Source of the DNA: an uncultured Gemmatimonadales bacterium
GTDB taxonomy: Bacteria > Gemmatimonadota > Gemmatimonadetes > Gemmatimonadales > GWC2-71-9
Reading direction: 5' to 3'
NCBI GenBank assembly: GCA_963779755.1
Contig: CAVZZO010000003.1
Location: forward strand, 704,939 to 768,938
Length of the DNA: 64,000 bases
Shown: one piece after another, positions 25,991 to 28,942 of the stretch
Numbering within the stretch: position 1 is the stretch's first letter
Layout: every line of letters starts with the position of its first letter
Program-made: the position numbers and the translations under genes
The notes under the pieces: generated by a model
The model's database searches: none
The model's input: only the letters and a program-made list of their open reading frames with translations
Told to the model about the DNA's origin: nothing

Positions 25991-28942
25991 TCACGCCGTC
26001 TGCCGCGCCCTGGCCCCCGGGCCCAAGACTTTTTTCAGGAACCGCCCCGTATGACTGGCGTCCACCGCCGCCACCTCCTCCGGCGTTCCTTCCGCCACCA
26101 CCTGCCCGCCGGCATCGCCGCCCTCGGGGCCCAGATCGATGATCCAGTCGGCGGTCTTGACGACATCGAGGTTGTGCTCGATGACGATGACGCTGTTGCC
26201 CTTGTCCACCAGCCGGTGCAGCACCTCCAGCAGCAGCCGCACATCCTCGAAGTGAAGCCCTGTGGTGGGCTCATCCAGAATGTAGAGCGTCCGGCCGGTA
26301 TCGCGCTTGGCCAGCTCGGTGGCGAGCTTCACCCGCTGCGCCTCCCCACCCGACAGCGTGGTGGCCGACTGGCCCAGGTGGATATAGCCCAGGCCGACGT
26401 CGTTCAGGAGCTCGAGCCGGTCGGCGATGCGGCGCTGGGTGGAGAAGAACTCCAGCGCGTCCTGGACGGTGAGGTCCAGGACATCGGCGATGCTCTTTCC
26501 TTTATACCGCACCTCCAGCGTCTCCCGGTTGTAGCGCCGGCCCTTGCAGACCTCGCAGGGCACGTACACATCGGGCAGGAAGTGCATTTCGATCTTTACC
26601 AGGCCGTCGCCCTGGCAGGCTTCGCAGCGGCCGCCCTTCACATTGAAGGAAAATCGCCCGGGTCCGTAGCCCCGGAGCTTCGATTCCGGCAGCTGGGTGA
26701 ACAGCTCCCGGATGGGAGTGAACAGGCCGGTATAGGTCGCCGGGTTGGAGCGGGGCGTGCGGCCGATGGGGCTCTGGTCGATATCGATGACCTTGTCGAT
26801 ATGCTCCAGCCCCTCGAGCCGGGTGTGCGCGCCCGGCAGCACTCGCGCCCGGTAGAAATGCCGCGCCAGCGCGCGGTAGAGAATATCCGTTACCAGGCTG
26901 CTCTTGCCCGACCCGCTGACGCCGGTCACCGCCACAAACAGTCCGAGCGGGATATTCACCGTCAGGTTCCGCAGGTTGTTCTCCCGCGCACCCACTACAC
27001 GCAGCGTGCGACCGCGCCCGGGCGCTCGGCGGCCCGAGGGCACCGGCACGCGCAGCTCGCCGCGGAGGTAGCGCGCGGTCAGCGAGGTGGGATGCCGGAG
27101 AATATCTTCGATGCCGCCTTCGGCCACGACGTGCCCCCCGAAACGGCCCGCGCCCGGCCCCAGGTCGAGCACATGGTCGGCCGCGCGGATGGTGTCCTCG
27201 TCGTGTTCCACCACGATGACGGTATTGCCCAGGTCGCGCAGGTCGCGCAGCGTATGCAGCAGCCGCTCGTTGTCCCGCTGGTGCAGGCCGATGCTCGGCT
27301 CATCCAGGATATAGAGCACCCCCACCAGCCGGCTGCCGATCTGGGTCGCGAGCCGGATGCGCTGCGCCTCCCCACCGGAGAGGCTCCCCGCCCCGCGGCC
27401 CAGGGTGAGATAATCCAGGCCGACATCGCAGAGGAACCGCAGCCGGTCGGAGACTTCTTTCAGGATGGGGCCGGCCACCTCGGGGTCGAGACCCGCTTGG
27501 CCGGCCCGCCGGAGCTGCAGCCCGCCGAAGAACTCCAGCGCGCGGTTCACCGGCAGGTCTACGATCTCGCCGATACTCTTCCCGCCCACCAGCACCGCCA
27601 GACTTTCGGGCTTGAGCCGCCGGCCGCCACAGGTGGCACAGGGCTGTTCCACCATGTAGTCGTCGAGCCCGGACCGTACCGAGTCGCTGGCGGTCTCGTG
27701 GTAGCGCCGTTCCACGTTGCGCAGCACGCCTTCCCATTCCGACTCGTAGCGATCGCTGCTCTTCGAGCCGCGGGTGGCGAAGCTCAGGGTCTTGCCGGGC
27801 AGGCCGTGGAGAATGGCTTTCCGCGCCGCCGCCGGCAGCTCGCCCCAGGGGGCGGCGAGATCGATTCCCAGCTCCTTCGCCAGGGTCGGCAGCACGACCT
27901 TGCGGAGATACCCACTGGGCTCGCCCCAGGGGAGTATGACCCCCTCCAGAATGGAGATCCGGTCGTCGCCCAGCACGAGGTCGGGCGCCACTTCCCGGCG
28001 GGTCCCCAGGCCGTGGCAATCGGGACAGACGCCGAAGGGCGAGTTGAACGAGAACTGCCGGGGCTCCAGCTCGGGGAGCGAAAGACCGCACACCGGGCAG
28101 GCGAAGCGCTCGGAGAAGACGAACGAGTCCGTATCGGAATCGGCGGGGCGGCGGTACGGCGGTACGGTGGTCGCGGCGCTCTCGCCCTGCCGTCCTGCCG
28201 TCCTGCCGTCCTGCCGTCCCCCGTGTCGCACCACCTCCACCACGCCGTCCGCCGCCTTGAGCGCCGTTTCGATCGAATCGTTGAGCCGCGAACGGTCGGC
28301 CGGCCGCACCACCAGCCGGTCAACCACCAGGGCGATGTCGTGATTCTTGCGGCGGTTCAGCTTCGGCACCTCGCGCAGCTCATAGACTTCGCCGTCCACC
28401 CGCACCCGCACGAAGCCGCGCTTCTGCGCGTCCTCGAAGAGGTCGCGGAACTCCCCCTTCCGTCCGCGCACCAGCGGCGCCAGGATTTCGATCCGCGTCC
28501 CCTCGGGCCAGCCGGCGACCACATCGCTGATCTGGCTGGCGCTCTGCCGCTCGACCGGGGTACCGTCGTTGGGACAATGCGGCACGCCGGCCCGGGCCCA
28601 GAGAAGCCGGAGATAATCGTAGATCTCCGTCACCGTGCCTACCGTCGAGCGCGGGTTCTGGCCGGTGGATTTCTGCTCGATGGAAATGGCGGGCGAGAGC
28701 CCCTCGATCGCATCGACATCCGGCTTTTCCATCAGGCCGAGGAACTGCCGGGCATAGGCGGAGAGCGATTCGACATAGCGCCGCTGGCCTTCGGCGTAGA
28801 TGGTATCGAAGGCCAGCGAGGATTTCCCCGACCCGCTGAGGCCGGTAATGACGGTCAGGCGGTCGCGGGGGATGGCTACCGTGATGTTCTGGAGGTTGTG
28901 CTCCCGGGCACCACGAACGACGAGGGCGGCATCTTCGGACAT
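25991..28942 (-). CDS. uvrA: Excinuclease ABC subunit A
   Basis: From the ATG at 28942: [22 protein letters not shown]…[10 protein letters not shown]…, zinc modules FACPVCG…CPDCHGLG and CEACQGDG, and two ABC signature/Walker sets. Confidence 0.96.
28187..28218. repeat. Perfect (CTGCCGTC)x4 octanucleotide tandem repeat inside the uvrA coding sequence
   Basis: Four exact 8-nt units. Read on the minus strand they encode ..[12 protein letters not shown].. within a lineage-specific insert just before the first UvrA zinc module. Confidence 0.95.

Follow-up and report, generated by a model that had tools for sequence, protein, structure and literature searches.

The DNA analyzed here, referred to below as the window, is a stretch of 64,000 nucleotides (nt) from an uncultured Gemmatimonadales bacterium (assembly GCA_963779755.1, contig CAVZZO010000003.1, positions 704,939 to 768,938 of the forward strand), and the element under study is an octanucleotide repeat located inside its uvrA gene. 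The uvrA open reading frame (ORF; 25991-28939, minus strand) is intact and encodes a protein of 982 amino acids (aa) with the N-terminus MSEDAALV. In a scan that covered 10 proteins of the window, Pfam placed UvrA_inter at residues 132-237 and UvrA_DNA-bind at residues 319-425, in addition to ABC-ATPase matches (ABC_tran). The features of a class I UvrA are thus present, namely matches to the ABC ATPase, UvrB-binding and DNA-binding domains as well as the FACPVCG and CPDCHG motifs in the alignments. UvrA chains from the PDB matched the ORF with E = 4e-63, and the protein was 69-78% identical to the Gemmatimonadota UvrA sequences of L001-L009, the closest of which (75-78%) came from metagenome-assembled genomes (MAGs) of Gemmatimonadales. 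Loss of UvrA leads to sensitivity to UV light and bulky adducts, and not to a strong mutator state.

Positions 28187-28218 of the plus strand consist of (CTGCCGTC)x4 with zero mismatches, and Tandem Repeats Finder (TRF) reported a tract at 28186-28219 with period 8, 4.2 copies and 100% matches. On the coding strand, the unit reads GACGGCAG and the tract starts at nucleotide 722 of uvrA (codon 241), in agreement with the initial annotation of this DNA, which had described a perfect fourfold octamer in frame within uvrA. The exact octamer CTGCCGTC occurs 15 times in the window compared to 5.2 expected occurrences, a number that none of 100 shuffles reached, while the double unit YTGCCGTCYTGCCGTC, with at most one mismatch, was found 21 times compared to 0.02 expected; therefore, the tract is not a product of chance. 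It had likewise been proposed that the octamer is common to other tracts, and we indeed found it in the tRNA spacers at 1593-1915 and at 35600-36036, as well as in the form of a related unit at the end of cysS (2274-2299).

Rather than being a lone simple sequence repeat (SSR), the octamer tract forms one arm of a hairpin with two tracts, which is encoded on the minus strand. Arm 1, which is G-rich and perfect, corresponds to the (GACGGCAG)x4 of the coding strand (28187-28218) and covers codons 241-251. A spacer with the coding-strand sequence GGCGAGAGCGCCGCGACCA (28168-28186), defined from the insert sequence and its fold, separates it from arm 2 (28141-28167), which is composed of the degenerate C-rich octamers CCGTACCG CCGTACCG CCGCCCCG. 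To our eye, the first 8 nt of the spacer resemble a decayed fifth unit. Arm 2 was detected by TRF (period 8, 3.4 copies, 89% matches) as well as in the fold, begins about 18 nt 3' of arm 1 on the coding strand, and yields TVPPYRRPA upon translation; both arms pair imperfectly. When the 94-nt region was folded, its minimum free energy (MFE) was -48.4 kcal/mol compared to -38.6 +/- 3.3 for shuffled sequences (z = -2.9), with 2 out of 200 shuffles being as good. With regard to the nearest genomes (L001 and L002), protein and DNA alignments concurred in an insert of 26 aa or 78 nt, which in the alignments with L001-L009 spans about 28137-28219 of the minus strand, its edges being uncertain by a few nt. 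The reading frame is kept only because the whole insert measures 78 nt, as the length of the tract itself (4 x 8 = 32 nt) cannot be divided by three. This is in line with the insert of about 27 aa directly before FACPVCG that had been annotated previously.

In the protein, the insert follows the last strand of the UvrB-binding domain (..DGVVEVVR) and precedes the zinc module segment FACPVCG. HMMER alignments to the UvrA structures 3zqj, 9ga5, 2r6f and 3pih break exactly at this point, with residues 136-174 of the query fragment remaining unaligned versus 16 residues in 3zqj. In an AlphaFold model that covers UvrA residues 101-420 and was built with 45 relatives, the insert appeared as coil, with a predicted local distance difference test (pLDDT) score below 50 at residues ~244-267, and was flanked by two antiparallel strands (fragment residues 133-139 and 170-176). 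The loop, rich in Gly, Arg, Gln and Pro, is hence predicted by the model to be disordered. Its tolerance of insertions is evident from the fact that the same loop ranges from 5 to 37 aa across 115 related UvrA fragments, and it is a permissive, hypervariable beta-hairpin tip, with the UvrB-binding domain on one side and the second half of zinc module 1 on the other.

The uvrA tract was reread as a general genomic feature because the same architecture fills the gene spacers of the window. Here, we counted 26 tandem tracts that have a period of 7 or 8 and at least 2.4 copies, nearly all of them intergenic. Their copy numbers cluster between 2.5 and 5.4, around four units being typical, and they make use of more than 10 different units, mostly with one unit (or unit pair) per locus. 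Many of them are inverted pairs which fold as hairpins, with z values from -3.2 to -7.7. In total, the tracts are distributed over about 14 loci, of which only 2 touch a gene, and no enrichment in coding sequence was observed. Hence, the uvrA tract exemplifies a widespread class of repeat hairpins, and only its intragenic position is unusual.

A genome scan, a search of 5.8 billion proteins and a metagenome locus scan retrieved no UvrA from the same species, the closest sequences being only 74-79% identical; since nothing above about 79% was found, the insert cannot be dated within the species. DNA was examined for seven long-loop relatives. The inserts present at the same loop in long-insert relatives are 54-84 nt in length and in frame, and significant hairpins were found at this position in five related Gemmatimonadales lineages, each with its own unit sequences. 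Specifically, the G-rich and C-rich arms are (GGACAGGC)3.5 and (CCGTCCGC)4.1 in L081 (z = -4.6), GGCGGACA / GGCGGTCG units and (CCGACCGC)4 in L082 (z = -6.2), (GAACGGGA)3.9 and (CCCGTTCC)4 in L083 (z = -5.0), GGGAAC-like units and their C-rich complement in L085 (z = -2.9), and (GTCGGAAC) and (CCGTTCCG) in L086 (z = -2.4). The 33-aa insert of L087 was also considered as a hairpin and rejected, as it folds no better than its shuffles (z = +1.05). The initial annotation had envisaged that the same peptide might be conserved in relatives without a nucleotide repeat; what we found instead was a hypervariable insert that is built from repeats.

The arms co-vary between lineages. The mean duplex energy was -48.8 kcal/mol for cognate arms and -38.0 kcal/mol for non-cognate ones, and only 2 out of 720 arm permutations matched or exceeded the observed total pairing. 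The G-rich arm comes first in all six hairpin inserts examined (the window, L081, L082, L083, L085 and L086). In a neighbour-joining tree from which the loop was excluded, the long-insert taxa were scattered among sisters with loops of 5-10 residues, and the nearest neighbour of the window (P0005/L084) has a loop of 10 aa. Within the same clade, the short loops of L168 (YGGQADHQSV) and L170 (YAGLADRQSV) harbor a small stem made up of approximately one unit from each arm, and the 14-residue loops of L169 and L094 contain a single 8-nt tract each. The simplest reading of this turnover would be that a small hairpin at a single tolerant site has repeatedly been expanded, contracted and homogenised by whole units, always under the filter of the reading frame.

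Besides its uvrA copy, L083 carries a second hairpin made of its uvrA octamers at L083:6104-6213, 4.5 kb away, which lies between the ABC_tran and ABC_tran_2 genes or in a gene start. In L081, these genes overlap and leave no spacer. This hairpin may be another intragenic one or a newly made spacer hairpin, in an assembly which has frameshift errors.

We also computed the products expected from altered unit numbers. Only tracts with 1, 4 or 7 units are in frame; those with 2, 3, 5, 6 or 8 units yield a product that stops after 379-551 aa, which bears out the previous proposal that slips other than multiples of three units would frameshift uvrA. The frame is maintained through the loop in the window and in 7 of the 7 insert-bearing relatives; hence, no OFF allele (i.e., an out-of-frame loop) was present among the 8 insert-bearing lineages. 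The frameshifts detected in L083, L086 and L087 fall outside the loop, in assemblies that are probably derived from long reads and in which several genes look fragmented. A set of short UvrA matches was tried as candidate OFF alleles and discarded, given that the matches listed were all 556 aa or less, a pattern that looks like a length filter or contig ends. Two other lesions were noticed away from the loop in short-read assemblies: an in-frame stop at L085:2108-2110, with a coverage of ~5x, and a 1-nt deletion near position 1845 of L170 (CTCGGGAG versus the expected CTCGAGGAG). These are either assembly errors or real uvrA pseudogenes.

With regard to read data, X1 was the only run found to hold the strain, at a depth of ~2.6x, and its contigs end before the tract. 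The high X1 depth at 28176-28243 corresponds to collapsed pure-repeat unitigs of other loci or organisms. In particular, the unitig at 28186-28219 is a 38-nt pure (CTGCCGTC)n with a word depth of 85.6, compared to 2.6 at the single-copy uvrA flank. From this ratio it follows that tracts of at least 4 units are ~30x commoner than the genome in that soil sample, be it here or in other organisms. An exact-flank pattern that allowed 2-5 units gave 0 matches in the metagenomes of the Joint Genome Institute (JGI).

We consider it rather probable that the uvrA tract belongs to a tolerated, evolutionarily restless SSR-armed hairpin in a permissive loop of UvrA, and that it is not a dedicated switch. 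According to this proposal, the tract is the 5' arm of an intragenic hairpin of ~78 nt, formed by a perfect G-rich tract, a spacer and a decayed C-rich tract, in a genome that builds hairpins with around four tandem 7-8-nt units per arm in many gene spacers, the unit differing by locus. The uvrA copy lies where the protein can bear an insertion, at a beta-hairpin tip, and is translated as a loop predicted to be disordered. Through replication slippage, tracts would be lengthened, shortened and homogenised one unit at a time, and selection on UvrA would remove every out-of-frame product. Both slippage as the mechanism and near-neutrality for UvrA are what we infer from the patterns described above.

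Several observations weigh against this explanation. The hairpin of the window is the weakest of the set present at this loop, and its arm 1 would pair better with arm 2 of L081 than with its own decayed arm 2. Furthermore, the unit of arm 1 is identical in every letter to that found in the tRNA spacers and the 35.6-kb arrays, which purely local slippage fails to explain. Four perfect units mean recent slippage or homogenisation, and therefore frameshifted uvrA variants must arise. Lastly, recurrent hairpins at one loop with co-varying arms and a single orientation could reflect selection for structure and not neutrality.

The origin of the insert and the possible role of the tract have to be weighed against three other explanations. 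The tract had been interpreted initially as an intergenic repeat captured in coding sequence. The part of this claim which concerns an octamer of intergenic type, shared with other loci, stood up, but capture of a whole element did not and was rejected: blastn of the 94-nt insert against the 64-kb window returned only the arm-1 tract elsewhere, there being no copies of the spacer or of arm 2, and for this reason we see no sign of such a capture. A related possibility is that a small mobile palindromic element, similar to repetitive extragenic palindromes (REPs), transposable elements of the miniature inverted-repeat type (MITEs) or Rickettsia palindromic elements (RPEs), was inserted in frame into uvrA. 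The identity of arm 1 with octamers of other loci would fit this idea, as would the recurrence of the L083 uvrA units GAACGGGA/CCCGTTCC at L083:6104-6213, the pure (CTGCCGTC)n unitig of X1, at ~33x the depth of the uvrA flank, and the patchy phylogenetic distribution; in-frame palindromic insertions into genes are also known from Rickettsia. However, similarity stops at the tract, neither element ends nor a target duplication were visible at the insert edges in the DNA alignment, and one unit of each arm is already present in the short-loop relatives. Within the 64-kb window, we did not see the multiple full-length copies with conserved ends that would be expected of REPs and their doublets (REPINs) or of MITEs and RPEs. 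We thus regard a mobile element as unlikely. Because the units of the relatives differ and short loops hold single units, local expansion and contraction fits at least as well as capture, and local generation is favoured over a mobile element since nearly every locus has its own unit sequence. Nevertheless, exchange or a common cause between loci is likely, because arm 1 recurs elsewhere and the L083 uvrA unit reappears in a second hairpin. The second explanation follows the contingency-locus reading of the initial annotation; here, slips of 1-2 units would reversibly switch UvrA off and on and give rise to subpopulations deficient in nucleotide-excision repair (NER). The formal architecture of such a locus is present, i.e., an 8-nt unit, which is not a multiple of three, within an ORF, and slips that truncate the product. 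Besides, four units pass the 3-unit detection threshold applied to octanucleotides in Haemophilus influenzae (PMC2651432), slippage of the site over evolutionary time is shown by the perfect tract and by unit numbers that vary among relatives, and repair-gene switching has a precedent in the 6-bp repeats of mutL in Salmonella (PMC2955026). By contrast, a switch function was not supported. Four units is the modal, and hence ordinary, length of all 7-8-nt tracts in this genome; the spacers, to which ON/OFF logic does not apply, hold the same tracts, and the repeat is not specific to genes of variable function, given that similar ~4-unit tracts occupy ~14 loci of the window, nearly all intergenic. 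Moreover, all insert-bearing lineages are in frame at the loop, the frameshifts and the stop of relatives lie elsewhere, tracts are not enriched in coding sequence, and uvrA is a housekeeping gene in a soil bacterium. A contingency locus therefore seems very unlikely to us.

The third explanation is that a hairpin, or a putative two-tetrad G-quadruplex (G4) of (GGACGGCA)4, in the uvrA mRNA or DNA is kept for its function, for example as an RNase processing or decay site, as a pause in translation that separates the UvrB-binding domain from the zinc module, or as a useful flexible Arg/Gly-rich loop. In its favor, hairpins with arms of similar length (~4 units) and constant orientation, the G-rich arm being first, recur at one codon position in at least 6 lineages, with the arm co-variation and the z values of down to -6.2 described above. 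Intergenic counterparts lie at tRNA ends and at the 3' ends of genes, where processing or termination is plausible, and the four-unit preference has been tied to G4 formation in Xanthomonas (PMC4692102). Against it, most close relatives have no hairpin, including the nearest neighbour P0005/L084 with its 10-aa loop, the hairpin of the window is weak and has a decayed arm 2, and the long insert of L087 does not fold. In addition, template switching within a quasi-palindrome can also make arms co-vary. The G runs of the uvrA unit GGACGGCA are no longer than GG, and one dominant G-tract unit of the kind GGGNATC, capable of a three-tetrad G4, was not found. A selected structure is accordingly improbable in our view, to a similar degree as the mobile element. 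Considered as a pair, the two options that UvrA is truly phase-variable, or that the hairpin is a selected RNA or DNA structure kept by concerted evolution of its arms, retain a small but appreciable chance beside the tolerated, restless hairpin that we prefer.

Among described systems, the closest kind is that of the G-rich heptamer SSRs of Xanthomonas (GGGAATC) and Nostoc (GGGGAYT), which are abundant and dispersed over the genome (Rehm et al. 2015, PMC4692102). In Xanthomonas, 89-93% of them are intergenic and 7-11% intragenic; these SSRs show a clear bias toward four units, 70-75 cases are convergent pairs able to form stem-loops, and they are located near ORF ends, with relatives keeping their positions while length and sequence vary (PMC4692102). 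SSRs of 6-9 nt have rarely been studied (PMC4692102). Like them, the tracts of the window are dispersed and mostly intergenic, prefer four units, occur as inverted pairs, lie near ORF ends and keep their positions; the heptamers of cyanobacterial short tandemly repeated repetitive (STRR) sequences are related to this type. In contrast to the known cases, the present ones belong to Gemmatimonadota, include 8- as well as 7-nt units, and comprise more than 10 units of which none is dominant. Another difference is that the uvrA hairpin is translated in frame and recurs at one protein loop with lineage-specific units. We found no literature on repeats of this kind in Gemmatimonadota.

Like the contingency loci of H. 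influenzae (Power et al. 2009, PMC2651432), the uvrA tract is an SSR within an ORF with a unit length not divisible by three, and slips of 1-2 units cut the protein short. The intragenic heptamer cases of that survey have 8-14 units, reside in surface or iron-uptake genes and show OFF alleles among strains (PMC2651432), whereas uvrA has 4 units, is a housekeeping repair gene and shows no OFF allele in 8 lineages. Small tandem repeats in mutL and mutS of Salmonella act as mutability switches, and allele conversion has been measured for the 6-bp repeat of mutL (Chen et al. 2010, PMC2955026). Both cases involve a short tandem repeat in a DNA-repair gene, where a change in copy number by slipped-strand mispairing inactivates the protein (PMC2955026); unlike mutL, with its 6-bp unit and a conversion shown experimentally, the uvrA repeat has an 8-nt unit and is described here from its sequence. 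As for palindromic insertions, the window has in common with the RPEs a hairpin-forming repeat whose in-frame translation, at an exposed surface site of a conserved protein, leaves that protein unbroken. The RPEs, reportedly described by Ogata and coworkers in 2000, are dispersed copies of 100-150 bp that belong to defined families and lie in frame within genes. By contrast, the loci of the window share the octamer tract only, their arms are tandem SSRs, and no full-length second copy is present in the window.

If our interpretation is correct, a tendency throughout the genome to make short-repeat hairpins can extend into an essential repair gene, where a permissive loop tolerates them. A little-studied class, that of 7-9-nt SSRs paired as hairpins, is also extended beyond Xanthomonas and Nostoc to Gemmatimonadota. 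What is new with regard to the described class is the multitude of unit sequences, together with a translated example whose arms co-vary between lineages. Should the tract slip measurably, this would constitute a rare case of repeat-driven NER instability in an environmental bacterium; should it not slip, it would advise caution against calling an out-of-phase SSR in an ORF a contingency locus where the repeat is ubiquitous in the genome. A truly phase-variable UvrA would imply a free-living soil bacterium with a stochastic NER-off subpopulation, and a selected structure would mean that an active, sequence-aware process writes repeat hairpins of 7-8-nt units, specific to the lineage, not only into spacers but also into genes.

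Two further repeat-armed hairpins bracket uvrA, one on each side. The first one (28986-29051, minus strand) has octamer arms (GCGCAGGG / CGCCCCTG) and is located in the divergent spacer ~50 nt upstream of the uvrA start; its 27-nt arms are 96% complementary (MFE -74.3, z = -6.9). The second one (25885-25990, minus strand) is armed with the heptamers AGGTCNA / GACCTTC and lies directly 3' of the uvrA stop codon (z = -3.2), a position at which L169, L170 and L008 carry different heptamers.

A four-tRNA operon (Thr-Tyr-Gly-Thr; 1514-2164, minus strand) contains spacers with stems of GACGGCA-type octamers at 1587-1930 (minus strand). They are built from the unit of uvrA arm 1, and each spacer is a single long hairpin (1587-1732, z = -7.7; 1807-1930, z = -4.8). 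In both spacers examined, the stem bases abut the tRNA ends, and the hairpin looks like a built-in processing stem. The end of cysS (2266-3807, minus strand) is a second case in which a repeat-armed hairpin overlaps coding sequence. This hairpin (2222-2312, minus strand; z = -5.6), with a AAGGCGGC-like unit, spans the 3' end of the gene in such a way that the last ~11 codons (..WKVAGWEGGKAGG*) form arm 1 and the stop codon is in the loop.

The largest block of the uvrA octamer is found on the plus strand at 35600-36155, in a non-coding gap of ~600 nt after a gene for a beta-eliminating lyase (34547-35596). It comprises 11 units, of the GGACGGCA type, followed by three 172-nt tandem repeats that are 96% alike and are each headed by a tract. 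All of these tracts are direct, and none has an inverted partner. The array could represent repeated small-RNA genes or a structured spacer. It had no Rfam match, and the Rfam scan of the window returned four tRNAs only. ARAGORN additionally proposed a 102-nt tRNA-Arg(CCG) at 44937-45038, with the anticodon at position 40, on which the Rfam tRNA model was silent at its gathering threshold; this may be a false call or an unusual tRNA. More intergenic tracts of period 7-9 were located at 465-519, 15775-15811, 23266-23325, 23578-23645, 34412-34537, 40383-40651 and 45266-45322; the unit is particular to each locus, and inverted pairs are frequent. By inspection, the pairing of GGGGACC with GGUUCCU at 34412-34537 would need G-U wobble, which would point to structure at the level of RNA and not of DNA.

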